From NCBI GenBank assembly GCA_944391075.1, contig CALXSG010000005.1, positions 1 to 60,897 on the forward strand: a DNA stretch of 60,897 nt, in the 5' to 3' direction. The position numbers were made by a program, and so were the translations under genes. Below, one piece after another: positions 3,053 to 60,897 of the stretch. The notes under the pieces were generated by a model. The model was not told the DNA's origin, ran no database searches, and was given only the letters and a program-made list of their open reading frames with translations. Each line of letters opens with the position of its first letter. Within the stretch, counting starts at the first letter, position 1. This stretch comes from an uncultured Rickettsiales bacterium (GTDB lineage Bacteria; Pseudomonadota; Alphaproteobacteria; Rickettsiales; UBA1997).

Positions 3053-3784
3053 ATGAAACAAATTATAGAAATTACACCAAGTATATTTTATTATATTCAA
3101 TATTTATTGATTGAGTCAGGTAATGATTCGGATAATTCAAGTTTTGCTGAAATTCACGATAGGTTATATTCACCTAAAATTTTTACTCCGGAAGAGTTTG
3201 CTGAAGAAATTTTTTACGTAATTTGTGTAGCTGGTTTTAAACAAGAAACAGCTAAAAAAATGTGTAATAAAGTTAAAGATTATATTAAAGAAAACCCTAA
3301 CCCAGATTTTAATGATATGATTAAAATTTATGGCAATGTAAATAAAGTCAAAGCTATTATTAAGGTATGGAACGAAAGAAAAGAACTACACAAACAATTT
3401 TATTCTTTATCAACACCAGAAGAAAAATTAGACTTTTTAGCAAAATTACCACATATAGGAAACATTACAAAATATCATATAGCTAGAAATTTAGGAATTA
3501 ATTTTGTAAAATATGACATATGGATTCAAAGATTAGGTGTTGCTTTATATGGAACTGATGATTATGTTAACAAAATTAGTAATAGCAAACTTAACCCAAA
3601 AATTAAAGAAATGTGTGATCAAATGTTCTCAAAACTTGAAGCACAAATAAATGAAAAAACTGGTTATATAGATGTTGTATTATGGAAAGCTTGCCAACAA
3701 GGTGTTCTTGTTATTGATGGCAGAAAAGTATTTTTTAACCCTGACAAATTTAATCTTCAAAAAACATCACCAGATTTTACATAA
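3053..3784 (+). CDS. Hypothetical protein with a helix-hairpin-helix (HhH-GPD glycosylase-like) segment
   Basis: LPHIGNITKYHIARNLGINFVKYDIWIQRLG resembles the HhH motif of EndoIII/AlkA-type glycosylases. The rest is unassigned. Confidence 0.35.
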   Translation: MKQIIEITPSIFYYIQYLLIESGNDSDNSSFAEIHDRLYSPKIFTPEEFAEEIFYVICVAGFKQETAKKMCNKVKDYIKENPNPDFNDMIKIYGNVNKVKAIIKVWNERKELHKQFYSLSTPEEKLDFLAKLPHIGNITKYHIARNLGINFVKYDIWIQRLGVALYGTDDYVNKISNSKLNPKIKEMCDQMFSKLEAQINEKTGYIDVVLWKACQQGVLVIDGRKVFFNPDKFNLQKTSPDFT

Positions 3785-4464
3785 TTATAAGTACCATCTT
3801 GTAATTTCATAACCAATGTTCCATCTTTATCTAAATTCTCAAATATTCCTTTTACACCATCAACTTCAATCTCTTGCTGAAATTTATAACAACCTTTTAA
3901 CCATTTTACTCTAATTGATGAAAAGCCAACCTTTTCCCATTCATTTAATAAAAAGCTAAAATTACTCAAAAATTCTTTTAATAAATCATATCTACTTACA
4001 ATTATACCTTCATCTTTTAAAGATGTAGCTTTAAAATTCGTATTTTCTGGAAAATTATTAATATTTGTCCCTGGTCCTATGATTACTTTATTATCATCAA
4101 ATTCAAGCAAAATACCAACAACTTTTTTATCATTTACTAGAACATCATTAGGCCATTTGCAAACAACAGAATTATTTTTAGTATCAAAATTTTTAATAGC
4201 ATATCTCATTGCTACACTAGTTATAAAAGAAACTTGGCTATAATCTAAACCCTTTTTATTGGCATCAATCATTAATGAAAAATATAAATTATCATTATTT
4301 TCACTATGCCATATTCTGTTTCCTTTGCCTTTGCCTGCTGTTTGCTTTTTAGAAATAACAACTGTATTTACTTTAAATTGCTTTACAACATTCATTGTAG
4401 AATCAACTTCATCATATTCAATTATATCATAATTCAAGTATTTTTCTTGATTAATTATATTCAT
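3757..4464 (-). CDS. birA: Biotin--[acetyl-CoA-carboxylase] ligase
   Basis: QTAGKGKGNRIWHS (GRGRxGRxW-type motif) and KWPNDVLVNDKKVVGILLE. Confidence 0.85.
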   Translation of the reverse strand: MNIINQEKYLNYDIIEYDEVDSTMNVVKQFKVNTVVISKKQTAGKGKGNRIWHSENNDNLYFSLMIDANKKGLDYSQVSFITSVAMRYAIKNFDTKNNSVVCKWPNDVLVNDKKVVGILLEFDDNKVIIGPGTNINNFPENTNFKATSLKDEGIIVSRYDLLKEFLSNFSFLLNEWEKVGFSSIRVKWLKGCYKFQQEIEVDGVKGIFENLDKDGTLVMKLQDGTYNYVKSGDVF

Positions 4465-5434
4465 TTTTAATGCCTAATTTATTAAGTGTTTTTTTAAATT
4501 CTTGTGATAATGGAGCTTTTATTTCTAAATCTTTATCAAAGAAATTTTTTATTTTAATATAATAAGCATGTAAATGCATATCATTACTTAAACCATCAAT
4601 AAAAGCTTTTTTTGAACCATATTTGCCATCACCCAAAATAGGATGACCTATTTCTTTCATATGTACTCTAATTTGATGAGTCCTGCCAGTAAGTAATTTT
4701 ACTTCAACTAAACTCACATTGTATTTTGTTGAATAACCTATAACTTTATATAATGTAATAGCATTTTTACCTTCTTTTTCGTCTTTGTAAACTTTTTCAA
4801 CTCCATTTTCAACCTTTTTTAATAATGGAATATTAATTTCCCCTTGATCTTTTGAAAATTTACCAATAACTAATGCTAAATAAATTTTGTCAATATTTTG
4901 ATCTTTGTTTTTAAAATAGTTTGATAATAAATCAGCTGATTCTCTATTTTTTGCTAAAATCAATATACCACTAGTATCTTTATCTAATCTATGAACTAAT
5001 TTAGGAATTTCGCCATTATTATCTTTTAAATATTTTAAATAGTCATTTACACTTTTTTCTATTTTTGTACCACTTTGCACAGCCAAACCCTTAGGTTTAT
5101 TGATTGCAAAAACATTATTATCTTCATAAATTATATATTTTTTAAATTTTTCTAACTCATCATTAGAAATACTAATTTCTTTTTTTTCTTTTTCATTTTT
5201 GGGTTTTGAATTAAAAATTTTAATTATAAAATCAGTTAGACATACATTATCATTTACCTTTAAATGATAATTATTCTGCACAACCCGCATATTTACTAGA
5301 ATATCTTTATTTCTTAACGCTTTTTGAATTAAAACATTATTTGTATTTCTAAAAATACTCTGTAAAAATTTATCTAATCTTAAACCTGAATATTTATTTT
5401 CAATAGTAATAATCTTATATTTATCGTTTTTCAT
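4451..5434 (-). CDS. RluA-family 23S rRNA pseudouridine synthase (RluC/RluD type, with S4-like N-terminus)
   Basis: HRLDKDTSGILILAKN catalytic Asp motif and LLTGRTHQIRVHM. Confidence 0.9.
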   Translation of the reverse strand: MKNDKYKIITIENKYSGLRLDKFLQSIFRNTNNVLIQKALRNKDILVNMRVVQNNYHLKVNDNVCLTDFIIKIFNSKPKNEKEKKEISISNDELEKFKKYIIYEDNNVFAINKPKGLAVQSGTKIEKSVNDYLKYLKDNNGEIPKLVHRLDKDTSGILILAKNRESADLLSNYFKNKDQNIDKIYLALVIGKFSKDQGEINIPLLKKVENGVEKVYKDEKEGKNAITLYKVIGYSTKYNVSLVEVKLLTGRTHQIRVHMKEIGHPILGDGKYGSKKAFIDGLSNDMHLHAYYIKIKNFFDKDLEIKAPLSQEFKKTLNKLGIKNEYN

Positions 5435-6077
5435 TTTTATAAGCTATTTCTAACATTTCTACACGTTTTTCTAAGGATCTTAAATCTTTTTTAATTCTCT
5501 CTATTGAATACAAAACTTCAACATCATTTCTATTTACATTAACAACACCCTTCCACATCATAGTAATAATTGTTGCTAAGCAAACTATACCAACAGATAA
5601 TGAAATAACCATCCATTTTGCAAGATCAAAATTAGCTTCTAATTCTTCGGTAAATGTTTTTAAATTATTAAGTTCTTTTTCTACATCAATAAATTTATTG
5701 TCAGTGCTTTTTGTGTGGTTATTTATGTAACTTTCATATTTATCAAATTCATATTGCGCCTTATTTAGAGTTGTTGTAACTCTTTTTCTTAATTCAGGCG
5801 AAACATTTTCATCACCTATAACATCCAAAACATTAATTACCTTTATATTTTTATCAACACCATTCTTTGTACTAATATCAAAATCTTCTTGTATGTTTTT
5901 TATATTTGAATCACTACTTTTTGAAGCCATATCCACTTTTATTTCAGCATCTTCAACATTTGTAGCAATAACAATGTTTTTATTTACAGTATTCACTGTT
6001 TGTTTTTGTTGTTCCGTAGCAATTGATAAACTAGAATACACAACAAGAGATAATAACAATATATTAAATTTTTTCAT
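5421..6077 (-). CDS. Hypothetical secreted/membrane-anchored protein
   Basis: N-terminal signal peptide, one C-proximal TM segment, 14-nt overlap with the downstream rlu gene. Confidence 0.45.
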   Translation of the reverse strand: MKKFNILLLSLVVYSSLSIATEQQKQTVNTVNKNIVIATNVEDAEIKVDMASKSSDSNIKNIQEDFDISTKNGVDKNIKVINVLDVIGDENVSPELRKRVTTTLNKAQYEFDKYESYINNHTKSTDNKFIDVEKELNNLKTFTEELEANFDLAKWMVISLSVGIVCLATIITMMWKGVVNVNRNDVEVLYSIERIKKDLRSLEKRVEMLEIAYKNEKR

Positions 6078-6169
6078 TGTAGAAACTATATTTGATACTA
6101 GTATTATTTAAATAAATTTTTTTTAATATTCAAGCTTTATTTTATGTATAATATTTTTGTATAAAAATG

Positions 6170-6198
6170 TTGCAAAATAAAAAATAATAAGTTATACT
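6170..6198 (+). promoter_or_regulatory. Sigma70-type promoter upstream of the VirB2-like gene
   Basis: TTGCAA (6170-6175), 17-nt spacer, TATACT (6193-6198). Confidence 0.5.
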
Positions 6199-6229
6199 CT
6201 TAATTGTATTAATTAATATGAGTTAAATT

Positions 6230-6565
6230 ATGTTAAAAAAATTATTTTTAATTACTTTGTTTACTGCATTGATGATTGGCGCTTCTTATGCTACAGTAAC
6301 TGGTGATGGCGATAAGACTAAAGATGCAATGACAGTTATTTTATGTAATGTTTATGCCTTTATAACAGGTGGTATTGGTAAGACTATTTGTTCATTCGTT
6401 ATCATTGGTGTTGGTATTGGTTTCTTCACAGGAAAAGTTTCTTGGGGTACATTAATTGGTGTCGCATTAGGTATTGCTTCATTATTTGGTGGACCTTCAA
6501 TTATGGCTGCTGTTACAGGTACAACCGATACACCTTGTAAGGGTTGGACAGCAACAACTCTATAA
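6230..6565 (+). CDS. TrbC/VirB2-like type IV secretion pilin, stand-alone
   Basis: 111 aa with a signal peptide and two Gly/Ile-rich hydrophobic helices (ITGGIGKTICSFVIIGVGIGFF... GVALGIASLFGG), as in VirB2 family members. Confidence 0.55.
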   Translation: MLKKLFLITLFTALMIGASYATVTGDGDKTKDAMTVILCNVYAFITGGIGKTICSFVIIGVGIGFFTGKVSWGTLIGVALGIASLFGGPSIMAAVTGTTDTPCKGWTATTL

Positions 6566-6605
6566 AATATAAAATAAATTATTTTATGTATTGATATAAA
6601 TTATG

Positions 6606-6629
6606 ACCTCATTTTTTAATGAGGTTTTT
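6606..6629 (+). terminator. Rho-independent terminator after the VirB2-like gene
   Basis: ACCTCATT-tttt-AATGAGGT followed by TTTT. Confidence 0.7.
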
Positions 6630-6712
6630 ATTTATAGAATTGTAAATATATATATTTTTGATATAATATTTTACTATAATATTATAATTAATCAGGTATA
6701 AAAATAAATATA

Positions 6713-50388: not shown

Positions 50389-51525
50389 ATGACACAATTT
50401 GGCTTAGAATTTCTACAAGAAGATGATTTAGAAAATAATGGCATGGCAAGATTAGGTTTATTACATACAGCTCATGGAGATGTTCATACACCTTGTTTTA
50501 TGCCAGTTGGAACAATAGCTGCCATGAAAGCAATGCATTTTGATCAACTTAGAGATACAGGTGCAGAAATAATGCTATGCAACACATATCATTTAATGAT
50601 TCAAGATAGATACAATACTATTGCAAAAATGGGCGGACTTCATAAATTTATGAATTGGGATAAACCAATATTAACTGATTGTGGTGGTTTTCAAGCTATG
50701 TCTTTAAGTAGTTTGAATAAAATCAAAGAAAAAGCTGTTATTTTTAGATGTCATTTAAGTGGAAAAAAATATGAATTAACACCAGAATTTTCTATGGAAA
50801 TTCAACACAAACTTGATACAGATATCACAATGGCACTTGATGAATGCGTTAGACAACCAGCTGATTACAAATATACAAAAAGAGCAATGGAAAGAAGTTT
50901 AAGATGGGCACAAAGGAGTAAAGATGCTTTTGTTCAACGTGAAGGCTATGGACTTTATGGCATTGTACAAGGTGGTGCAGAAAAAGATTTAAGAACAGCA
51001 TCCATTGAAGGACTTAAAAAAATTGGTTTTGATGGTTATGCTATTGGTGGTGATTTATCTATTAATGATGGGTGGGAACTTATGTTCTCCGTTCTTGACT
51101 ACTTAACACCAATGATGCCACATGACAAACCACGATATTTAATGGGCGTTGGCAAGCCTATTGATATAGTTGGTTCTGTGTTAAGAGGTGTAGATCAATT
51201 TGATTGTGTTTTGCCAGCTAGAAGTGGACGAAACGGACAAGCATTTATTAGAGGTGGGACATTAAATATTAAAAACTCAAAATACAAATATGACGATTCA
51301 CCACTAGATCCTAAATGTAATTGCAGAGCCTGCAAACAACACACAAAAGCCTACATAAATCACTTATTCAAAGCCGACGAAATGCTTGGTGCCATGTTAT
51401 TAACAGAACACAACATCATGTACTATCAAGACTTAATGCGTGGCATTAGAAAAGCCATCGCAGAACACAGATACAAAAATTTTGTTGATGAATTTATGAA
51501 AAATGGTGCAGTAGATTTATATTAA
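50389..51525 (+). CDS. tgt: Queuine tRNA-ribosyltransferase
   Basis: LTDCGGFQ, GGDLS, and the zinc site CNCRACKQH...H. Confidence 0.95.
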   Translation: MTQFGLEFLQEDDLENNGMARLGLLHTAHGDVHTPCFMPVGTIAAMKAMHFDQLRDTGAEIMLCNTYHLMIQDRYNTIAKMGGLHKFMNWDKPILTDCGGFQAMSLSSLNKIKEKAVIFRCHLSGKKYELTPEFSMEIQHKLDTDITMALDECVRQPADYKYTKRAMERSLRWAQRSKDAFVQREGYGLYGIVQGGAEKDLRTASIEGLKKIGFDGYAIGGDLSINDGWELMFSVLDYLTPMMPHDKPRYLMGVGKPIDIVGSVLRGVDQFDCVLPARSGRNGQAFIRGGTLNIKNSKYKYDDSPLDPKCNCRACKQHTKAYINHLFKADEMLGAMLLTEHNIMYYQDLMRGIRKAIAEHRYKNFVDEFMKNGAVDLY

Positions 51526-51536
51526 GAAAATTATAT

Positions 51537-51569
51537 AAGCATTATAAATATATATAATGCTTATTTTTT
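51537..51569 (+). terminator. Terminator after tgt
   Basis: AAGCATTATA-aatata-TATAATGCTT followed by ATTTTTT. Confidence 0.65.
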
Positions 51570-51613
51570 GTACTTCCATAAAATTTTTATTGATGTAGTA
51601 TTGATAATTTTTA
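51561..51613 (+). repeat. Copy A of the ~55-bp TACTTCC motif, abutting the res stop codon
   Basis: TTATTTTTTGTACTTCCATAAAATTTTTATTGATGTAGTATTGATAATTTTTA. Confidence 0.6.
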
Positions 51614-54565
51614 TCAAACATCAAGTTCACCTTGTTTATATATTTTAGTCCTATTTAATTTCAACATATCATCAATTGGAGTATTCTTAGCAATAAGATT
51701 ATAAAAATCTTCATCACTCAATAAAGTATAATACCAAGTCCTATTATCTCTATCTTCTGGATTAAATTTATTAATCTTTTCCACAAAATAATAAGCAGAT
51801 TTTAATTTATTTTGTGTATTTTCATTATCCATTCTATCTTTACCTTTTGTCTCAACAATAAATATATTTTCCTTTGTTTTAACAATAAAATCTGGATAAT
51901 ATCTTGCTAAAAAACCCCTTTCATTAATATATTTTAAATTAATAAAATCAAAAGCTCTTTCTTTAATTTTTAAGAATGCTTCAACATTTGAATCTCTATC
52001 GCAAGCTTCAATAAAATCTCTTTCAAAACCACCTTTATTTGATGGAAAACCAAGCTTTGGATAAATACATTTAGAAACTTCAATTGAATAATTTTCTCTC
52101 ATTGTAATTTGATTTAAACAAGAGAAATATTTTTTCTCAATTACCATTTTCTCAATTTCTAAATTATTTTGCATTTTAATAATCATTTCACTTAATTGTT
52201 TAATTAAATGAGTAGTAATTTCAGCTTTTTCTAACATCAATATTCGCCAATTCTCATCAACAAAAGGATTAAATTCTTCTTCAAAAAGTTTATGTCTAAT
52301 ATAATTATCAATTATAGCAATTAAATAAGCTTGATTTATTTGCATTGATGGATATGATTTTTTCTTTTTATCAAGATGATTATTACTATAAATATTTACA
52401 TTTTTACAAATATTATTAATCAAAGAAGTAAGATATTCATTATAACTATTTGCTGTGAAAGTTTCACTATTAACTCTATAAGTTCCAAATTGAGTTTGTG
52501 TAATAATTTCTCTTGATCTAAAAATTTCTCCTGTATGTTTTTTAACATAATCTTTTAATTCTTCTAAATTTAATTTAGTTTGAATAGGTTTTATATCATC
52601 AATAGTCAATTGTGGAACTGATAATTCTTCTACTTCATCTTTAACAATTACAGGCCAAAATAAATCATACTTTTCATAATTTTCTTTTAAATCAACTTTT
52701 ATTAAATCACCCAATGTTTTTTTAGGTGAATATTCTTGCTCTTCAACAACAACTCCTTCTTCAATTAATTTTTCATAGAATTTTTTATAATTAGGATGTT
52801 CTACAATAAACAATATATCATAATAAGCAGAAAATTCTTTACTTTTATCAATAAATAATTTATGTCTATTATCAGCTTTTATTTCATTAATAACATCATC
52901 ATTTCTCCACATCAATCTTAATCCCCTACCTATTGTTTGTTCCAACAATATTTGCGAAGATGAAGATCTTAAAGGAACCACAACACATATATTATTAACA
53001 TCAAAACCTTCTCTCAACATCAAAACAGACACAATAACTTTTACTTCATCATTTTTATCAACATTATTCAATTTAATCTTTAAATTATTCCATTCATTTT
53101 CAGATATTGAACCCTTTTTAGAAGAATCAACCCTCAATATAGATTTCTCATTCAAACCACAATCACTTTGTAAAAATTCTTCAACCAATGGTGTTATTTC
53201 TGTATCTTCACAAATAACCATCATTTTTGGAGTTTTACCAAGTTTAGAAAATTGCTCTTCCAATGTAGACAACTTTGCCAAACCAGCTCTCAACATTATT
53301 CTTTGACCATCAGACAAATATTTATTATTTTTCTCACCTTCTGCTTTAAAATTCAAATCACCATCTTGAATACTTGCAGTTTGTATTCTTTCATCAATAC
53401 TAACAATTTTAACAAGACCTTGTTGAATAGCCTTAACAAGTGGAAAATCAACAATAATATGTGGAAAATAATTTTTAGCATCAGACTCATTAGAAACATT
53501 ATTATAAGGAGTAGCCGAGAAATCTATCTGCAAAAATCCTTTATCTTTATTTTTAGAAGCTAAATTAATAATAGCTTCCCACACCAAATCTTCATCCTTT
53601 TTCAAATCATGAATATGGTGCGCTTCATCATTTATAATACATAAATTATTTAAAGAACTCAAATACTTTATACTATCACCAATAGTATATCTTGAATCCA
53701 AAACATTCAAATCAGAGCCAGCATTTTTACTAGGTGGCAACTCCAAAACATCATCAACCAAATTTTTCATAGCCTTCAAGCTATAATCATCACATACAAT
53801 TTTTTCCTTTTCATCTTCTTTTTTAGACAACAAATCTTTATCAAAATCATACAAATATTGCCAATTAGTAATAGCAATCAACCCACTACCAGTAATTTTT
53901 TTACCTATTTCATCCTTTTTAACAAGATTATTATTAACAAAAGAATACAGAGTTTCCCTATACTCATAAGGCAAAAATAAATCTTCATTTCTTTTTATAT
54001 CAGATGTATTAAAATCCCTACCACCACCATCTTTTTCTTTTCCCAAAAAAGAATCCAATAATCTATCATAAACAATAACACCCGGTGCTATAATCAAAAA
54101 ATTTTTTATCCAATTAACATCACTATCTTTATTATACATAGCATTCAAAACTTGCCATATAAACAAAGCATTCATAACAAATGTCTTACCTGTTCCAGTA
54201 GCCATTTTAATACAATATTTTAAAGTATCATATTTATCATTTTTAATCGCAGACAAAAACTCATCATCTATAAAAACTTCACCAACATCATCTTCAATAA
54301 TTGAATAAACATCAAAAATATTTTTACACTTCAAAACTTCATAACAATATATAGCATTCAAAATAGCTTGCTTTTGCCCTTCGTGAAAATTTATACTTCT
54401 ATTATCACAAGTATCTTGACTAAACCAATACTCCAACAATTCAGCAGTAACATCACTAACATTATCATAAATAGATTCACTTTCCCATTCATTCAAAACA
54501 ATTTTACTAAGAGCTTCTGCAAATTTTATAGGTTTACTACCAGTAGTTAATTTATTTTTACTCAT
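51614..54565 (-). CDS. res: Type III restriction enzyme, Res subunit
   Basis: SF2 helicase motifs MATGTGKTFV and NDEAHHI, plus a C-terminal PD-(D/E)xK motif YYPDFIVKTKENIFIVETKG. Confidence 0.9.
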   Translation of the reverse strand: MSKNKLTTGSKPIKFAEALSKIVLNEWESESIYDNVSDVTAELLEYWFSQDTCDNRSINFHEGQKQAILNAIYCYEVLKCKNIFDVYSIIEDDVGEVFIDDEFLSAIKNDKYDTLKYCIKMATGTGKTFVMNALFIWQVLNAMYNKDSDVNWIKNFLIIAPGVIVYDRLLDSFLGKEKDGGGRDFNTSDIKRNEDLFLPYEYRETLYSFVNNNLVKKDEIGKKITGSGLIAITNWQYLYDFDKDLLSKKEDEKEKIVCDDYSLKAMKNLVDDVLELPPSKNAGSDLNVLDSRYTIGDSIKYLSSLNNLCIINDEAHHIHDLKKDEDLVWEAIINLASKNKDKGFLQIDFSATPYNNVSNESDAKNYFPHIIVDFPLVKAIQQGLVKIVSIDERIQTASIQDGDLNFKAEGEKNNKYLSDGQRIMLRAGLAKLSTLEEQFSKLGKTPKMMVICEDTEITPLVEEFLQSDCGLNEKSILRVDSSKKGSISENEWNNLKIKLNNVDKNDEVKVIVSVLMLREGFDVNNICVVVPLRSSSSQILLEQTIGRGLRLMWRNDDVINEIKADNRHKLFIDKSKEFSAYYDILFIVEHPNYKKFYEKLIEEGVVVEEQEYSPKKTLGDLIKVDLKENYEKYDLFWPVIVKDEVEELSVPQLTIDDIKPIQTKLNLEELKDYVKKHTGEIFRSREIITQTQFGTYRVNSETFTANSYNEYLTSLINNICKNVNIYSNNHLDKKKKSYPSMQINQAYLIAIIDNYIRHKLFEEEFNPFVDENWRILMLEKAEITTHLIKQLSEMIIKMQNNLEIEKMVIEKKYFSCLNQITMRENYSIEVSKCIYPKLGFPSNKGGFERDFIEACDRDSNVEAFLKIKERAFDFINLKYINERGFLARYYPDFIVKTKENIFIVETKGKDRMDNENTQNKLKSAYYFVEKINKFNPEDRDNRTWYYTLLSDEDFYNLIAKNTPIDDMLKLNRTKIYKQGELDV

Positions 54566-54566
54566 C

Positions 54567-56441
54567 TTAAATCTCCTTTATACATATTGCTTCACCACCA
54601 AATATATCAACAGCCTTCACACATATTTTTCTACTTCCATAAGTTGTTTTAGGAACATTCAAAACAGCAACTTTATCAACCATCAACTCATTAGCATTAT
54701 TTTCATTACCCCTATAATCTTGCCACTTACTCCTAAATACTTGACCATCATAATCAGGATCAACCGACCAATATTCAACCATAGCCAAAGGATTAACTGC
54801 CACAATCTTTTTAACTTTTTCAGCTTCTTCTTGTTTCAAAGGCAAACAATCAGGATCCAAATAAATATAATTATCAAGTTCAACTATTATTTTTTCTTCA
54901 AAATCATTATTACCAGCCTTAACAATAGGTTCTTTAATACTCAAATAATTCAAACTTGAAAACTTAACTTCTTTTTTCTCAACAAGAGTCCTCAATTCTT
55001 TTTTCTTCAACAAATCAAACAAATTTTGCGGAATAACCAAAACTTGCAAATTTTTATCTTGATTCAACTCATCAATAATATTAACTATATCAGGAACAAA
55101 TTGCCAACCCAAAACAACCAATTTTTTAAAGCCACCAAGCAAATTTTCCTTCAACTTCAAAGCTTTTAAAATAGTAGCCTTACTAGTAATCATTCTAGGA
55201 CTATCAACATAAACCAAAGTTTTTTCTTCCTTCACATAACCAACATTATTAGGAATATTATTATCATCATCAAAAACACTAGCCCCATACAATTGCAATA
55301 TAACCCTTGCCAAATCACCAATTCTTTTAAACTTACTACTTTCAAACATTTCTTTCTGATAATCACCAATAGCTTGAAACAAAAATGGTTTAGCATCATT
55401 ATCAATCATCCTTTTTCTAGTAATCAAAGTAGAAGGTTTACCAATATCTGTTGTAATCCACTTTCTACCCAACTTTTCAGCCACACTCGCAGTAGTCCCA
55501 CTTCCACAAAAGAAATCTGCAACTATCGAGCCTTCATTACTACTTGCTTTTATGATTCTTTCTAATAGTGCTTCGGGTTTTTGAGTAAAATATTTTACAT
55601 TTTCTTTTGCTTGTGGATTAACTATTGGTATATCCCAAGTATCATCAATAGGTGTTTCTGATGAATTAGGATATATTTTATTTCCATTTACCCATTTAAA
55701 TTTTTTTCCTTCTTCATCAACTTGATCATATTTTTTTTCCCATCCTTCTTTTTTTTCTCTATATTGTATATTAAATATATAACTATTTATATTTTTAACA
55801 TATCTAAAAATGACATCATGTTTTTTAGCAAAATCTCTTTTTGGTGAATTTCCACTAACATAATGCCATATAATCTCATTTCTAAAATTCTCTTTTCCAA
55901 AAATCTCATCCATTAAAACTTTAACATAATGTCCCACATGCCAATCAATATGAACATAAATACTGCCTTTGTCGCTCAATAATTCTTTCATTAAACATAA
56001 TCTAGGATACATCATTTCTAAATAACTAACTGTGCCATCTTTCCAAGTGTCGCTGTATGCAAATTGTTCTAAAATTGTAGGTTTTGTTTCTATTTCTGCA
56101 TCGGGAAGTTGTATATTGGTTCTGTAATCTGCTTTGCTGTCAAAAGGTGGATCAATATAAATTAAATCAATACTATTTCTTAAAGATGGAGTAATATCGT
56201 CGCCTATTAATAGTGCTTGCATTGCTAATAAATTATCACCATAAACAAGTCTGTTTACCCATTCTTTTTTGCTAGGGTCTTTTAAAACTCCATTAAATAA
56301 ATTGTTTGTGTTTTTTGAAGGCAATACATATTCATTTGTTTGCAATGTTAATTTTTCACCATTGTCAATATTTTCTAAAATTCTTGCAACTTTCTTTTTG
56401 CCTTCTGCAACAATGCTTGGCAATTCGTCTATTAATGACAT
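54567..56441 (-). CDS. mod: Type III restriction-modification methyltransferase, Mod subunit
   Basis: DLIYIDPPF (motif IV) lies N-terminal of [20 protein letters not shown] (motif I), the beta-class order. The ATG at 56441 has an AAGGAG RBS. The stop is 1 nt before the res start. Confidence 0.9.
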
Positions 56442-56552
56442 AAACTCCTTTAATATGTTAATAAATTTATTCAAGAATAAAAAAAATTTTTGAAAAATCA
56501 ATTATTATATTGATTATTATTGATTAAGTTTAATGTTATGTGAGTATAAAAA
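56401..56552. repeat. Direct repeat copy 1 (mod start codon, RBS and upstream region)
   Basis: Aligns with 58818-58969. About nine in ten positions are identical by eye, with two 1-nt indels. Confidence 0.85.
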
Positions 56553-56647
56553 TATATACTTCCTAAATTTAACATTTTTTGTTAAATTTTTGTTGATTTT
56601 TACAAAAAAAATTTATATTATTATTTTATCAATAAAATTTTAAGAAA

Positions 56648-57985
56648 ATGTTAGTTAGTTTTAGTGTTGAAAATTTTAAATCTTTTGCGAAAAAAGAAAC
56701 TTTGTCTATGGCTCTTGCAACTAAGATAAAAAAAAACATTTTGACTAATAATTTTTTTAAAACAGGAAATAAAACTTATGATAATCTATTAAAAATTGCT
56801 TGTTTTTATGGAGCCAATGCTAGTGGTAAGACTAAATTTATTGAAGCAATACATAGTTTTTTATTCTTTTTTAAAGAAGAGTTGCAAGAAGTTGATGATA
56901 ATTTTGAGGATATATATGAACCATTTGCTTTTGATAAAGAGAATTCAAATAAGCCTATAACATTTAGTCTAGAATTCATTGTGAAAAATGTTTTATATTC
57001 TTATCTTATTTCTTATAATAAAAATTCAATAGTAAAAGAGAAATTAATTAAATTTAATAAAAATAAAGAAGAAGTTATTTTTTCAATAGAAAAAGATAAT
57101 ATTGATAAATCTATATTTTCAAAAGATATTGAAGAATTATCTAAAAATACAATATTAAAAATACAAAAGCAAAATTATAATAATTCATTTTTGAGACTTT
57201 TTGATCAAGATTCTACTTCTGATATATTAACAGATATTCTTTTATTTTTTAAAACAAAAATTAATGTAATATTATGTGAATCAAGATTTGATGAAAGAAT
57301 ATTCGCCGGAAATACAGCAGAAAAATATATAAAAAATAATAGTAATGATAGACAATTAATAACAAATATATTAAAAACAACTTGTAATTCTTTTACTGAA
57401 ATTAATATAAATCAAATAGATGTAGATTTAGAGAAAATGAAAATACCTGCCGGGCTAAAAAAACTTTTACAAGATGAAAAAAAATTAAAAAGATTGGATA
57501 TAAAATTTAAACATAAAAATACCGAATTGGATATAAGGGATGAATCAAGTGGAACTAAGATAATGTTTGGATTATCAGGAAGATTAATAGATCTTTTTAG
57601 AAATGGTGGTGTTATTTTTATTGATGAATTGGATAAAAATTTACATCCTGATATTTTGGTTTATTTAATAAAATTATTTCAAAATAAAAATATAAATATA
57701 AGTAATGCTCAATTAGTTTTTACAATACATAATGATATTCTTTTAGATCAATTTTATGATGAAATTTTAGAAAAAAGAGTATCTTTATTAAGAAGAGATC
57801 AAATATATTTTATTAATAAAGACAGAAATGAAGCTTCACATTTAAATAGGGCTGTTGATTATACAGGAACACAATTTAGAGATAATATGGTTAAATTATA
57901 TAGAAATGGTTTTTTTGCTTCAAGACCTTTTGATTTAGAAGAAAGTTATACATTTTTAGAGGAAACAATACATAATGACAAGTAA
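56648..57985 (+). CDS. AAA (AAA_15/21, ABC-like) ATPase, AbiLi/RloA-type
   Basis: Walker A GANASGKTKF and Walker B plus His, VIFIDELDKNLHPD. Overlaps the RloB-like gene by 11 nt. Confidence 0.75.
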   Translation: MLVSFSVENFKSFAKKETLSMALATKIKKNILTNNFFKTGNKTYDNLLKIACFYGANASGKTKFIEAIHSFLFFFKEELQEVDDNFEDIYEPFAFDKENSNKPITFSLEFIVKNVLYSYLISYNKNSIVKEKLIKFNKNKEEVIFSIEKDNIDKSIFSKDIEELSKNTILKIQKQNYNNSFLRLFDQDSTSDILTDILLFFKTKINVILCESRFDERIFAGNTAEKYIKNNSNDRQLITNILKTTCNSFTEININQIDVDLEKMKIPAGLKKLLQDEKKLKRLDIKFKHKNTELDIRDESSGTKIMFGLSGRLIDLFRNGGVIFIDELDKNLHPDILVYLIKLFQNKNINISNAQLVFTIHNDILLDQFYDEILEKRVSLLRRDQIYFINKDRNEASHLNRAVDYTGTQFRDNMVKLYRNGFFASRPFDLEESYTFLEETIHNDK

Positions 57986-58784
57986 AAAAAAGAATATAGG
58001 TAAATCAAATTTAGATACAGGTGATAAAGATATAAATATTTTAATAATATGCGAAGGTAAAAATACCGAAAGAATGTATTTAGCTAAATATTTTAAATTA
58101 CTAGTTAAAAAGATATTTGAAAAAGAAATAGAAGACTTTTATTTTTTAGATCCTTATGGAGAAGATCAAGAAGGAAAATTTAAAAATTTTAGATTTGAAG
58201 CAAAAAATAATGATGGAAATACTTTATCTGTTATTCATATTCAAATAGAACATACTGGAAAAACTGATCCTTTGGGTATTGTAAATCAAGGAAATGAAAG
58301 GTCTAGTAATTATGATTATGTTTATTGTGTTTTTGATAAAGATGGACATGTGGAAGGAAGACTAGAAAATTATAATAAAGCAATGAGACAAGTAATTAAA
58401 AAAAATGTAACAATAATTAATTCTATTCCATTTTTTGAATTGTTTATTGCTTTACATTTTAAATATACTACTTCTGAAAATTATTGTAATAATTCTAGTG
58501 ATGATTTTATAAAAAATGTTCTTAAAAAAGAATTTAAATTAGAATATTCTAAAACATGTAAAGATTTTTATAAATCTTGGGAAAAAATAAAAGATAAAAT
58601 TTCTAATGGAATAAATAATTCTATTAAATTATCAAAGGAAGATTTTAATATAAAAACAAATTTTCATATACTTTTAATTGATTTATTTAAAATATTTACT
58701 GAAAAGGTTTCTGACGAAAAATATATAACAAAAAATAAAAATGATAGTGAAGTTATTAAGGTTATGAAAAAAATATTTGAATAA
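57975..58784 (+). CDS. RloB-like (Toprim-like) protein, AbiLii-type
   Basis: The N-terminal ILIICEGKNTERMYL matches the RloB family signature (CEG..TE..Y), with a later FDKDG acidic motif. Confidence 0.7.
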   Translation: MTSKKKNIGKSNLDTGDKDINILIICEGKNTERMYLAKYFKLLVKKIFEKEIEDFYFLDPYGEDQEGKFKNFRFEAKNNDGNTLSVIHIQIEHTGKTDPLGIVNQGNERSSNYDYVYCVFDKDGHVEGRLENYNKAMRQVIKKNVTIINSIPFFELFIALHFKYTTSENYCNNSSDDFIKNVLKKEFKLEYSKTCKDFYKSWEKIKDKISNGINNSIKLSKEDFNIKTNFHILLIDLFKIFTEKVSDEKYITKNKNDSEVIKVMKKIFE

Positions 58785-58807
58785 TTTATTATTTTTTGAT
58801 TTAATTA

Positions 58808-58858
58808 CTAATTTTTACCTTCTGCAACAATTCTTGGTAATTCGTCTATTAATGACAT
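58808..58858 (-). pseudogene. Orphan 5' fragment of a mod gene (16 codons, then a stop)
   Basis: The - strand reads ATG TCA TTA ATA GAC GAA TTA CCA AGA ATT GTT GCA GAA GGT AAA AAT TAG. This equals the [14 protein letters not shown] of the intact mod and has the same AAGGAG RBS. Confidence 0.8.
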
Positions 58859-58969
58859 AAACTCCTTTAAATATATTAATAAATTTGTTTAAGAATAAAA
58901 AAATTTTTTGAAAAATCAATTATTATGTTGATTATTATTGATTAAGTTTGATGTTATGTGAATATAAAA
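58818..58969. repeat. Direct repeat copy 2
   Basis: See 56401-56552. Confidence 0.85.
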
Positions 58970-58992
58970 TTTATCTATATTTCTATAATTTT

Positions 58993-59047
58993 TTATTTTT
59001 TATACTTCCATAAAATTTTTATTGCGATAATATTAATATTTTTATTA
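58993..59047 (+). repeat. Copy B of the TACTTCC motif
   Basis: TTATTTTTTATACTTCCATAAAATTTTTATTGCGATAATATTAATATTTTTATT. Confidence 0.6.
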
Positions 59048-59260
59048 TTTTTTGATAATTAAATTTATTATCTATAATGTTTAGTATTATGATATAGCGA
59101 TTAAATGACAAAATAGTAAATAATGTTATACTTATTGTTTGACTTCATGTTATACAATATAGTGCTACACTCAATATCATAAATTATAAATGGAAATTAT
59201 TATTGTTGGCTTTTCTTATAATTCTTATGAATCTAAATTTTTTATTTAATTTATTTTTTA

Positions 59261-59306
59261 TACTTCCATAAATTTTTTATTATAATAGTATTAATAATTT
59301 TAATTG
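59261..59306 (+). repeat. Copy C of the TACTTCC motif
   Basis: TTATTTTTTATACTTCCATAAATTTTTTATTATAATAGTATTAATAATTTT. Confidence 0.6.
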
Positions 59307-59640
59307 TTTATTATTTATAATATATCAAATACTATATTATAAAAAAATTCTGTTCTAATGCAAATGCAAGATTTTTATTTACATTTCTATAAATGTTTAT
59401 TCTACTAAGAATAGAGTTTAATCTTGTTGTAAATTTTATGAGTGCTTTTTTTACACTTATATTTGTATTTATGTTCTTTTATTTATTTTTATATATATTA
59501 TCGCTAGTTTAGATTCTAATTATCGTCTATTTATAATAATTGTAACTGTGATATTATACTTAATATTATACTTGAAAACTAAGTCTCACTATTACTAGAT
59601 TTTACTATCAATCTTAAGATTCAATATTTTATAATTTAAT

Positions 59641-59695
59641 TTATTTTTTATACTTCCTTAAAATTTTTATCATGATAGTATTAATAATTTTTAAT
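59641..59695 (+). repeat. Copy D of the TACTTCC motif
   Basis: TTATTTTTTATACTTCCTTAAAATTTTTATCATGATAGTATTAATAATTTTTAATT. Confidence 0.6.
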
Positions 59696-59751
59696 TATTT
59701 TATTTTCAATTCTTGTATATTCTGTTTTTAGATTTGTTATTGGTAATTATA

Positions 59752-60665
59752 GATTGCTTCGCTTCGCTCGCAATGACAGTACCCCCTACATCGTCATTGC
59801 GAGAGTTCGTAGAACTTGTGGCAATCTCGTGATGGAACATTATAACAGTCAAACAAAACTCGTCATTGCGAGGCTTTGAAAAAGCCGTGGCAATCTCGGG
59901 ATGGCAACCACTACACACAACCAAAACTTCTCATTGTGAAGGCCAAAGGCCTGTGGCAATCTCAGTATGGGACACCAGGGTACTCAACCCCCACTGTCAT
60001 TGCGAGAACCGAAGGTTCGTGGCAATCTCGGTATAGGACATAATTATTCTATTGATAATTTTTTTTCTTTTCTGTTTTTGGTAGTGGTTCTGTGGTTTGT
60101 GGATTGCTTTGCTTCGCTCGCAATGACAAAGGGGAAAAGGGGTGGTGAATTCTTTTTCTTTTTTATAAAAGAAGAAACCAGTAGTAGTTGTGGATTGCTT
60201 CGTTTCACTCGCAATGACAGTACACACAAACTTGTCATTGCGAGAGTTCGTAGAACTTGTGGCAATCTCATTTATTTTAGACTTGTCATTGCGAAGGCCG
60301 CCCTACCCACACAGTCATTGCAAGAGCCAACCCACACTCGTCATTGCGAGGGCTTGAAAAGCCCGTGGCAATCTCGTTATGGCAACAACCACACCCAATC
60401 CACCAGTGTCATTGCGAGAACCGAAGGTTCGTGGCAATCTCAGTATGGGTACAATTATTCATTCATATAATTCTTTTGTTTTCTGTTTTTGCATTAACTA
60501 TTAGTGGTTTGTGGATTGCTTCGTTTCACTCGCAATGACAGTATCCCCACACCGTCATTGCGAGAGTTCGTAGAACTCGTGGCAATCTTGATATAGAGTA
60601 TTGTGGTAAAAGCATTACTCAACCCCCCTGCGACTTCGTCGCTTCCCCCCTTACAAAGGGAGGCA
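59752..60665. repeat. Dense field of ~40-nt palindromic (REP/MITE-like) elements arranged as a higher-order tandem repeat
   Basis: At least 10 units of GTCATTGCGAG-[short perfect hairpin]-GTGGCAATCTC, plus 4 inverted units of GATTGCTTCG.TTC.CTCGCAATGAC. The same module order recurs from ~59720, ~60066 and ~60470. Confidence 0.85.
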
Positions 60666-60897
60666 AAATGTGATTGTAGATTACTTCACATCTTGTGCAA
60701 TAATAAAGAAGAAAATAAAAAATAATTTATTTTTTAGTCACGATATTAAGAGATATTAAAGTGGCTCTCGCCACCAATTAGATATTTATTAATTTTAAAG
60801 GAGTAGTTTTAGTATACCTTAAAAAGTAACCCACCAGCTTAGCTGGTGGTTCTTCATTTTCGGGCATAGCCCTAATACTACTAGCAGCACCTCTAGG

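Follow-up and report, generated by a model that had tools for sequence, protein, structure and literature searches.

Mobile restriction-modification (R-M) complexes with recognition-domain substitution and with insertion accompanied by long target duplication have been described by Furuta, Abe & Kobayashi (2010, PMC2853133). In the passages searched, that work treats rearrangements and takes the codon bias or GC3 of whole genes to mark them as foreign. The locus discussed here is similar to the systems in those passages: the R-M unit occupies different loci in close relatives, the recognition domain undergoes allelic replacement, islands are substituted at a fixed site by a core gene, and direct repeats lie at the edges. 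In the same passages no one-sided, sub-genic, strand-polar synonymous signature was found, nor any in flanking core genes.

Mutation hotspots at double-strand breaks, formed via resection and gap-filling synthesis, are the second comparable system (Shee, Gibson & Rosenberg 2012, PMC3607216). In that experimental system mutation is maximal within ~2 kb of the break, decays with distance, and needs DinB and RpoS. The present locus shares with these hotspots the local scale and the proposed cause, resection followed by resynthesis of one strand. It differs in that a Y-family polymerase was not found in the genome (G000), that synonymous sites have shifted in their equilibrium over evolutionary time, and that breaks here are only deduced.

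The window is a 60,897-nt stretch of contig CALXSG010000005.1 (assembly GCA_944391075.1) from an uncultured Rickettsiales bacterium. A sequence-only reading of it had claimed a lopsided T->C codon pattern on the + strand at 51285-55565, covering the 3' end of tgt, all of res and two thirds of mod. This pattern is real and is the strongest in the genome. The base counts given as examples are exact (2 G and 14 C in 53761-53820, 2 G and 13 C in 53881-53940), and the tract has 343 G and 819 C on the + strand, i.e., a GC skew of -0.41. A genome-wide GC-skew scan bears the claim out: ranked against 2046 windows of its own size (4281 nt) across the 1.16-Mb genome, where |skew| averages 0.139 (sd 0.089), the tract has the largest |GC skew| (0.41), the sole window above it overlapping the tract itself. 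The res gene ranks first of 792 ORFs (>=150 aa) in G3-C3 skew (0.855), with third-position G/(A+G) of 0.28 vs a genome mean of 0.148 and C/(C+T) of 0.019 vs 0.108. As whole genes, res and mod have G/(A+G) of 0.28-0.30 vs 0.10-0.18 in their same-strand neighbours. In 50-codon windows over 52850-55530, G/(A+G) is 0.3-0.58 and C/(C+T) ~0.00, and TTG makes up 84% of TTR codons vs 13% genome-wide. Of all G-rich windows in the genome, 51/255 fall in res and mod.

Both halves of the pattern had been equated with T->C on the + strand. This holds for tgt, where T->C only is observed. For res and mod the named base-change type (A->G on the minus strand) is correct, but the + strand is depleted in G as well (coding-strand C3 ~0), which T->C alone does not cover. 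The cassette tract has G3 of 0.185 and C3 of 0.008 (G3:C3 ~23:1); on its sense strand G and T are up, and C and A are down. Codon positions 1 and 2 also tilt G-up and C-down. In animal mitochondrial DNA, an A->G plus C->T asymmetry is ascribed to time spent single-stranded, and the four-way shift on the cassette sense strand is the same. Sequence context in the patches is reverse-complement symmetric: the G preference is 0.79 after T, 0.47 after G, 0.28 after A and 0.26 after C, and the C preference is 0.67 before A, 0.60 before C, 0.42 before T and 0.38 before G. This symmetry could simply reflect general avoidance of TpA and CpG.

The tract is a composite of two adjoining things, a mobile R-M gene pair and the 3' end of the core gene next to it, and no single event accounts for it. 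It is broken up, being strong over 52850-55586, weak over 51900-52850, and strong again at 51641-51800 and 51214-51513. The res gene (51614-54565, - strand) encodes a predicted type III restriction subunit of 983 aa with Pfam matches to ResIII (E=1.9e-15), Helicase_C (E=1.1e-5) and RE_endonuc (E=2.6e-4; 21.2 bits, cut-off 23.4); source records call its homologues 'type III restriction enzyme'. Its cluster has 19 members with ~99% aa identity, spread over many metagenomes. The strongly G-type part of res is 52850-54565 (G/(A+G) 0.26-0.57 with one dip to 0.14, C/(C+T) 0-0.07), and the low-skew part is 51900-52850 (0.04-0.27, C still ~0), which agrees with the milder skew reported for the 3' part. 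The 3' portion (51614-52849) is ~1.6x as polymorphic as the 5' portion (64 biallelic sites/1236 nt vs 57/1716 nt).

The mod gene (54567-56501, - strand; TTG start at 56501, first ATG at 56441) encodes a predicted type III methyltransferase (Pfam N6_N4_Mtase, E=1.3e-48), and its stop (54567) is 1 nt from the res start (54565). The 3' third (54567-55586) is G-type, with G/(A+G) of 0.36-0.58 and C/(C+T) of ~0. Next comes the variable target-recognition domain (55587-55866), ordinary in composition and swapped in other copies: homology to L013-L016 stops at 55586 or 55634 and restarts at 55866, the central 280 nt of mod being replaced. Since mod occurs in at least five lengths among copies (624 to 680 aa), several variable-domain alleles exist. 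The 5' third with the upstream region (55867-56550) has C/(C+T) of 0.2-0.33, low G except beside the variable domain, and 96.7-97.2% identity among copies; its usage is not that of the tract, a point on which the sequence-only reading holds. The right border is sharp because the recognition domain is swapped among copies and ordinary in composition. The proposed borders stand as recombination borders, the right one being the swapped recognition domain and the left edge of the res part being the cassette end at the res stop, but they do not delimit one patch.

The Res domains and the upstream Mod with its variable central recognition domain identify a putative type III R-M system, and 51616-56550 is a horizontally mobile mod-res cassette. 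Depending on the contig, the cassette (98.4-99% identical) adjoins either tgt or an ATP-synt_ab ATPase gene (different strains or species). Homology runs as far as the res stop and is interrupted at the variable domain. Cassette copies diverge by 1-1.4% vs 3.6-5.3% for the adjacent tgt, and copies of both contexts are intermingled in the tree. Of the recombination patch suggested earlier, the mobility part is upheld by the same cassette beside two core genes. The cassette and its junctions recur in independent assemblies from many samples, which rules out an assembly chimera.

The tgt-res spacer is ordinary in composition, in agreement with the earlier description, and contains a 12-bp hairpin followed by T6 on the + strand (51535-51564; -11.5 and -12.9 kcal/mol, z ~-3.7 and -4.0). 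This hairpin, which was missed by a simple GC-rich terminator scan, is likely to be a bidirectional terminator. A D1-family repeat copy (~60-80 nt; 51548-51626, + strand) lies at the left island edge, and other copies are at 58980, 59238 and 59628. The region 51570-59254 has no homology in the sister species G005, so both of its ends fall in D1 copies. Two copies of a ~155-nt direct repeat (left 56395-56551, + strand; right 58812-58969; 92-95% identical) bracket an rloA-like AAA_21 ATPase gene (56648-57985) and rloB (57975-58784), both on the + strand, with ordinary codon usage and inserted beside the cassette. In L015, rloAB is absent and the bracketing regions are joined directly. An Rfam search of 56400-60897 gave no matches.

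The core gene tgt (queuine tRNA-ribosyltransferase; 50389-51525, + strand; Pfam TGT, E=2e-145) is convergent with res, and its orthologues in relatives have 76-94% identity. Its last ~100 codons (51214-51513) form a C-type patch with C/(C+T) of 0.44-0.63 and ordinary G/(A+G). The patch is present, in a weaker form (0.25-0.46), in cassette-free strains and in G005. Consequently, the C-rich end predates the cassette insertion, and a single patch spanning tgt, res and mod has to be given up. In polymorphism data, derived C is found at 12/28 T sites of the patch vs 13/107 upstream (p=6e-4); C is still favoured there, and the patch is at or near equilibrium. In the second context of the cassette, the convergent ATPase gene is C-rich at its 3' end too (0.39/0.55/0.50), as is its cassette-free orthologue. 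Near the cassette, T>C and C>T differences are 9:2 in each context vs 25:23 upstream in total (Fisher p=0.02). Such ends are also seen where the cassette is missing, so it is not what causes them, and spilling of its signature into tgt is a weakened candidate. A general effect of convergent gene ends was rejected, as it amounts to a trace (0.127-0.140 vs 0.11).

About 20 similar one-sided patches occur elsewhere in the genome, strong ones lying in lepA, iPGM, radA, hslV, dnaA, Vut_1, DpnII and an N6_Mtase gene. The C-rich ones are not G-depleted, and exact mirror images of the cassette tract are lacking among them. Replication and transcription strand asymmetries (GC/AT skew) span replichores or whole transcripts. 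Unlike them, the patches are 0.2-2.7 kb long and clustered at variable-element borders, their polarity is mixed relative to contig-level skew, and lepA flips from G-type to C-type inside one transcript. Replication-strand skew was rejected on this mixed polarity and on the same-strand neighbours, which do not share the skew.

Seven strong patches were compared with islands missing from G005 or with the cassette junction. Each is on the side of the island where it was expected; six abut it, and hslV is ~670 nt away. The polarity in strong cases is T->C on the strand running 5'->3' toward the variable element (A->G on the complement). An unbiased arm test gave C+ minus G+ of +0.039 for the left arms (n=64) and -0.032 for the right arms (n=58; p=0.011), and controls taken 1.2 kb inside the blocks gave p=0.51. 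With orientation controlled, C/(C+T) of island-facing 3' ends is 0.168 vs 0.106 (p=0.011), and strongly C-rich 3' ends are found in 5/50 island-facing genes vs 2/401 others (p=2.5e-4). Island-facing 5' ends show no significant effect in G000 (p=0.46); with G005 as the focal genome their G/(A+G) is 0.172 vs 0.130 (p=0.025). The tests in G000 and G005 are not independent because many patch loci are common to both. Averaged over the genome the effect is small, and a few loci account for it. The tract belongs to a wider and apparently undescribed pattern, one-sided synonymous patches beside frequently exchanged DNA; a description of island-flanking patches of this kind was not found within the literature searched.

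The best reading of the composite tract, a tentative one with somewhat less than even confidence, is a strand-polar bias in synonymous substitution that acts over the long term on the homology arms of DNA that recombines often. The conserved cassette modules (the 3' third of mod and the 5' 60% of res) carry an enrichment for A->G and C->T on their sense strand (minus), which drops with distance from the target-recognition domain of mod; G/(A+G) falls from ~0.5 near the variable domain to ~0.1 at 2.8-3.3 kb. The res 3' end (51641-51800), the mod 5' flank beside the variable domain and the mod arms of G018 misfit a clean bipolar picture. The tgt 3' end is one of a class of core-gene ends in this lineage that abut variable islands and have C-rich third positions among pyrimidine-ending codons. 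The pattern, its borders, the mobility, the association with island junctions and the ongoing C bias in tgt are observations; the connection with recombination intermediates, and the enzymology, are inferred. The patches could be homology arms used at each exchange of the variable element or in break repair there, and one strand of the arm may be repeatedly resected and resynthesised, or left single-stranded for some time. MutS was not found in G000, G005 and G008 and was found in only 4/26 family genomes (G010, G017, G022 and G041), and endonuclease V was found in 0/26. In such a background G:T-type mispairs or deaminated adenines on the exposed strand could stay uncorrected, and purifying selection would then retain synonymous changes only. 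UDG is present. Nick-directed mismatch repair and a Y-family polymerase were rejected as agents, their genes not having been found, and the genome yielded no gene for an error-prone polymerase. By a rough estimate, chemical deamination during rare recombination events would be too slow.

A broader statement appears doubtful: in this gut alphaproteobacterial lineage without MutS, the arms of hypervariable elements (R-M cassettes, recognition domains, defence islands) may carry a polar footprint of recombination or break-repair intermediates, namely A->G, alone or together with C->T, on the strand running away from the element.

For the cassette, inherited donor composition is a serious rival, although on balance unlikely. 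G3/T3-rich, C3-free usage could have been acquired elsewhere, e.g., in the leading strand of a genome with strong skew or in an element with a single-stranded phase, and could be slowly ameliorating; the variable domain and part of res would have been overwritten by local recombination, and the tgt end would be an unrelated neighbour. The cassette is indeed mobile and younger than its surroundings, and it is co-oriented with most flanking genes in both contexts. Minor-allele-polarised changes within it are G>A in 15 cases vs A>G in 7, at a per-site ratio of 0.31 vs 0.27 in neighbouring genes, so the G-richness may be a decaying relic that is not actively maintained. In other AT-rich contigs res homologues also have G3 raised relative to their neighbours (0.2-0.33), and low C3 is common in accessory genes here (C/(C+T) 0.045 in rloA and 0.029 in rloB). 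However, a donor lineage with such usage was not found among 5.8 billion proteins, where the next res relative has 56% protein identity, and the nearest cassette homologues have 66% DNA identity or 56% protein identity; the strongly skewed source lineage that the sequence-only reading envisaged for the patch is thus not supported. The G3:C3 ratio of the tract is far beyond that of any same-strand neighbour. A G-type patch of the same kind is found in the vertically inherited lepA, where patches are conserved across three species at 3-5% lepA divergence. The link of patches to island junctions also stands against import, and the gradient away from the variable domain would be unexpected under a simple form of it.

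Transcription-associated asymmetry is improbable. It supposes that the mod-res sense strand gains A->G and C->T and that read-through extends the bias ~300 nt into the convergent gene. A single cause would thereby cover the sense G/T excess of res, mod and DpnII together with the C enrichment at the 3' ends of the genes convergent with them (tgt, the ATPase gene and Vut_1), and in the G018 homologue both mod arms, on either side of the variable region, are G-type. Nevertheless, the putative terminator hairpin separates res from tgt, the tgt patch remains in genomes without the cassette, and the 5' third of mod is not G-type. Highly expressed groEL has G/(A+G) of 0.086 and is free of such bias, other highly expressed genes being similar. 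The reversal within the lepA transcript and the trace effect in convergent genes generally speak against it as well.

Selection on synonymous sites has little probability. It could act on codon choice (TTG, NNC) or at the mRNA or DNA level, e.g., by purging TpA-rich promoter-like or nuclease-sensitive sequence. The ongoing process favouring C in tgt could be selection, the context is dominated by TpA loss, and dedicated tRNAs for TTG, AAG, GAG, CAG and AGG are present, so that G-ending codons are readable. On the other hand, the context in C-rich patches is the first base of the next codon and so crosses codon borders, codon positions 1 and 2 shift the same way, and the patches cover arbitrary gene halves and keep their physical polarity across convergent gene pairs. 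Translational selection in particular was rejected: the patches do not lie in the highly expressed genes, and every G-ending two-fold codon has its CNN-anticodon tRNA.

A single burst of strand-specific, adenine deaminase-like hypermutation on a single-stranded transfer intermediate, the other candidate of the sequence-only reading, is very improbable and was discarded: the base-change type (A->G on one strand) fits and endonuclease V, the remover of deaminated adenine, is absent, but ~40-80% of eligible sites are changed almost purely at synonymous positions, where positions 1 and 2 would be struck too, the signature is common to 10/10 cassette haplotypes in both contexts, the tgt patch is older than the cassette, and analogous lepA patches are kept in three species. 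A kataegis-like deaminase cluster fails on the same synonymous changes, haplotypes and cross-species patches. GC-biased gene conversion in recombining bacteria should lift G and C together on either strand; it would resemble the present case in local synonymous G or C enrichment in recombination-prone regions and in the ongoing C bias in polymorphism, but only one of the two bases rises here (in tgt C and not G), the other being nearly gone in the cassette (C3 0.8%). A diversity-generating retroelement target was rejected, since the changes are A->G only, synonymous and kilobases long, and a repeat search of 51400-60897 gave no template copy. A single Chi-like motif behind the G-rich strand was not supported by k-mer enrichment, which yielded diffuse TG-rich words only, and an antisense ORF kept by TTA/CTA/TCA avoidance is contradicted by opposite-strand ORFs of only 90-103 aa and 18 stops remaining in frame.

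Local base composition is routinely taken to indicate that DNA is foreign or in which direction it is replicated. In this case the borders of the genome's strongest skew are sharp and coincide with those of recombination modules, similar one-sided patches mark core-gene ends beside exchangeable islands, and the lineage has no MutS. Should the link to recombination intermediates prove false, the tract is still accounted for: a type III R-M cassette that moves and swaps modules lies next to a gene end with a bias of its own. An assembly chimera and a burst of hypermutation stay excluded. If the link is true, arms of this kind could mislead tests that detect horizontal transfer by composition, and break-repair- or recombination-linked mutation, known from laboratory assays, would be shown to be capable of shaping genomes over evolutionary time. 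Synonymous skew would then serve as a sequence-only map of recombination hotspots in uncultured bacteria, showing where exchange occurs, how often and with what polarity.

The draft genome (1.16 Mb, 25.9% GC, 35 contigs, one of which, the 60,897-bp C5, is the window) has close relatives deposited as "uncultured Rickettsiales bacterium" metagenome-assembled genomes (MAGs) from gut metagenomes. In the window, tgt (50389–51525, + strand) is followed by a type III res (51614–54565, − strand) and by mod (54567–56501, − strand; start TTG 56501 or ATG 56441), beyond which lie an rloA-like ATPase gene and then rloB. The sequence-only reading placed here a single one-sided T->C (+ strand) synonymous patch, at 51285–55565. 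The two 60-nt base counts on which it drew (2 G versus 14 C and 2 G versus 13 C) are exact, and comparison across the genome confirms the tract and res as the most extreme in skew. GC skew of the 4281-nt tract is −0.41, beyond that of any other of 2046 equal-sized genome windows. Res has the highest third-position (G−C)/(G+C) (0.855) of 792 non-overlapping ORFs with a length of 150 aa or more, its G/(A+G) being 0.28 versus a genome mean of 0.148 and its C/(C+T) 0.019 versus 0.108.

The skew is unevenly distributed. In 50-codon windows, the stretch from 52850 to ~55530 has G/(A+G) of 0.3–0.58 and a C/(C+T) close to 0, values are ordinary at 51900–52850, G/(A+G) rises again at the 3' end of res, and C/(C+T) climbs to 0.44–0.63 over the final ~100 tgt codons. 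In the strong tract (52850–55586), TTG makes up 84% of TTR codons (13% genome-wide) and GTG 70% of GTR codons, and C-ending codons number just 7 of 892. Res and mod, with ~0.6% of all windows, hold 51 of the 255 windows genome-wide in which G/(A+G) is at least 0.40.

The mod-res pair adjoins tgt in some assemblies; in others the encoding contigs carry it in a different neighbourhood, next to another convergent gene (an ATP-synt_ab family ATPase). Presence of the same pair in multiple assemblies and two genomic contexts excludes an assembly chimera. Between the res stop (51616) and a point shortly upstream of mod (56550) the two contexts are 98.4% identical, with homology broken at 55587/55634–55866, where the copies carry different sequence. 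The right border proposed at ~55560 is therefore the boundary of a swapped target-recognition domain. Mod products of 624/644, 658/659, 664, 672 and 680 aa, as given by gene callers in different samples, indicate that the population has five or more alleles of the recognition domain. Res belongs to a cluster of 19 members with ~99% amino acid identity from many metagenomes, the next relative being 56% identical. The cassette copies diverge by 1–1.4% over 3973 nt, the adjacent tgt by 3.6–5.3% among the same strains, and the two contexts are intermixed in the tree of cassette copies; the cassette is thus a mobile module, exchanged recently and repeatedly. Its mobility features agree with those known from restriction-modification (R-M) gene complexes (PMC2853133).

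Several repeats surround the cassette. A direct repeat of ~155 nt (56395–56551 and 58812–58969, 92–95% identical), which takes in the 5' end of mod and the region upstream of it, lies on either side of rloA and rloB. Cassette contigs of the other context lack rloAB, and the repeat-flanked regions are joined directly there; rloAB looks like an insertion accompanied by a long duplication of the target. An AT-rich family of ~60–80 nt (core TACTTCCATAAAATTTTTATTG) has one copy in the tgt-res spacer (51548–51626) and three beyond rloB (58980–59058, 59238–59316, 59628–59706), with weaker copies on contigs C2 and C4. The stretch without homology to the sister species genome G005 (51570–59254) has both ends inside copies of this family. 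At 59710–60600 lies an array of palindromic REP-like units (36–45% GC; GTCATTGCGAG...TCGCAATGAC) with related copies on seven or more further contigs and no Rfam match; a 167-aa ORF at 59967–60470 is probably spurious.

Alignment of tgt to relatives does not bear out one patch spanning tgt, res and mod. The tgt of G005, which has no cassette, is 94% identical gene-wide, with differences spread evenly along the gene, and its 3' end is already C-rich (C/(C+T) 0.25/0.46/0.36). Strains that share the left neighbourhood and have another gene after tgt give 0.29/0.46/0.36, and cassette-bearing strains 0.33–0.67. The ATPase orthologue of the present genome, without the cassette, has 0.39/0.38/0.34 at its 3' end, versus 0.39/0.55/0.50 with it. 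The cassette therefore adjoins gene ends that were C-rich beforehand. These ends are somewhat more C-rich where it is present: over the last ~250 nt in each context the cassette-bearing copy has 9 T>C versus 2 C>T, as against totals of 25 versus 23 upstream (contrast p=0.02). The C bias in the tgt patch is still active. Among 10 haplotypes, majority-T third positions have a derived C at 12/28 in the patch versus 13/107 upstream (p=6e-4), and C sites a derived T at 6/24 versus 16/27 (p=0.02).

One-sided patches of 0.2–1.1 kb occur at ~20 loci of the genome. C-type patches (high third-position C/(C+T) on the coding strand) occupy 3' portions of lepA (reaching 0.88), iPGM, radA, hslV, dnaA, a Vut_1 transporter gene, an N6_Mtase R-M gene, tgt and the ATPase gene. 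G-type patches (high G/(A+G), C near 0) are found in res and mod, in a DpnII endonuclease gene (3' part), in lepA and rmuC (5' parts) and in one unannotated gene. One physical polarity is common to Vut_1 (+) and the DpnII gene (−) convergent with it, as it is to tgt and res. The same lepA patches occur in this genome, G005 and the relative G001 (95–97% identity) and are faint in G008 (84%); they are therefore old and stable. The gene (C2:68754–72439) is G-type at its 5' end and C-type over its 3' 1.1 kb, and the N6_Mtase/HSDR_N/Eco57I-type R-M gene after it, missing at the G005 site, has a C-rich 3' end. In G001, lepA is 97% identical to its counterpart here and tgt only 79%, which reflects recent exchange between species or else a chimeric MAG.

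Alignment of the entire G005 genome (79% of the present genome alignable) gives a mosaic of 70% to 98% nucleotide identity, which suggests extensive interspecies recombination. Strong patches lie inside 92–97% identical segments that end at DNA without a G005 homologue: Vut_1/DpnII to 3432, iPGM to 2721, radA from 2892, lepA to 70637 and tgt to 51569, with hslV lying ~670 nt to the right of 6707, the other end of the Vut_1/DpnII island. That 3.3-kb island (3432–6707, within C2:2194–8053) starts inside the DpnII gene, is replaced in G005 by unrelated DNA of similar length, and has a left flank C-rich on the + strand and a right flank (hslV) G-rich. At every listed junction the polarity is T->C on the strand reading toward the island. 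When all block ends are taken, + strand C/(C+T) minus G/(A+G) is +0.039 in left arms (n=64) and −0.032 in right arms (n=58; p=0.011), and the difference is gone 1.2 kb into the blocks (p=0.51). Island-facing 3' ends have C/(C+T) of 0.168 versus 0.106 in others (orientation-controlled, p=0.011), G being unchanged, and strongly C-rich 3' ends number 5/50 versus 2/401 (p=2.5e-4). The predicted G excess at island-facing 5' ends is not significant in this genome (0.160 versus 0.143) and reaches nominal p=0.025 with G005 as focal genome (0.172 versus 0.130). All these junction tests have loci in common, and a few strong cases drive them. No account of one-sided synonymous patches flanking islands was found in the searched literature.

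In G-type patches the probability of G at a purine third position varies with the base before it (T 0.79, G 0.47, A 0.28, C 0.26), and in C-type patches that of C at a pyrimidine third position with the base after it (A 0.67, C 0.60, T 0.42, G 0.38). The base after it begins the next codon, so the effect crosses codon borders, and the two contexts are reverse-complement images. In the tract, first and second codon positions share the leaning of the third. Together these patterns argue for a DNA-level process rather than codon selection. Every G-ending two-fold codon has a matching CNN-anticodon tRNA among the 37 tRNAs detected by ARAGORN (Leu, Lys, Glu, Gln and Arg included); ARAGORN detected no tRNA-Tyr, probably owing to assembly incompleteness. 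General TpA loss with CpG avoidance could give the same context ranking, and a single process is not proven. C-type patches, not being G-depleted, do not mirror the cassette tract exactly.

Cassette polymorphisms (10 haplotypes) comprise 84 A/G versus 31 C/T, and the neighbours have the same + strand T/C excess (73:17 in tgt, 26:14 and 29:18 in two minus-strand genes). Third-position changes in the strong tract, polarised by minor allele, are 7 A>G and 15 G>A (p=0.13 versus balance), with a per-site ratio of 0.31, much like the 0.27 of the neighbours; on these few data cassette G-richness may be in decay. A res homologue from another genus (66% DNA identity) has a weaker form of the bias (5' G/(A+G) 0.24–0.33, C near 0), and a 51%-identical one on an AT-rich contig has raised G and ordinary C.

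We tentatively favour a long-term, strand-polar substitution bias in arms flanking often-exchanged DNA. One arm strand would be repeatedly resected and resynthesised, or single-stranded, on a scale like that of E. coli break hotspots of resection and gap-filling (PMC3607216), in a lineage unable to correct G:T-type mispairs or deaminated adenine. MutS was absent from searches of the present genome, G005 and G008 and is present in only 4/26 family genomes, so that mismatch repair looks lost lineage-wide; endonuclease V is found in 0/26, and no Y-family polymerase was found in the present genome (~95% complete). A uracil-DNA glycosylase family protein is present.

Donor composition is a serious rival for the cassette itself, but leaves the core-gene patches and their position at junctions unexplained. 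Read-through transcription would unify res/mod with the convergent gene ends; however, a 12-bp hairpin lies between res and tgt, the tgt patch persists without the cassette, highly expressed genes lack the bias and polarity switches inside lepA. A single burst of strand-specific hypermutation on a single-stranded intermediate, one of the two original proposals, is rejected, since the changes are only synonymous, different haplotypes, species and contexts have them in common, and the patch in tgt is older than the insertion.

The sequence-only observation is thus confirmed and its interpretation borne out in part. The tract joins a mobile type III R-M cassette with swapped modules to an independently biased gene end beside it, and both belong to a genome-wide pattern with a probable link to recombination and an unproven mechanism.
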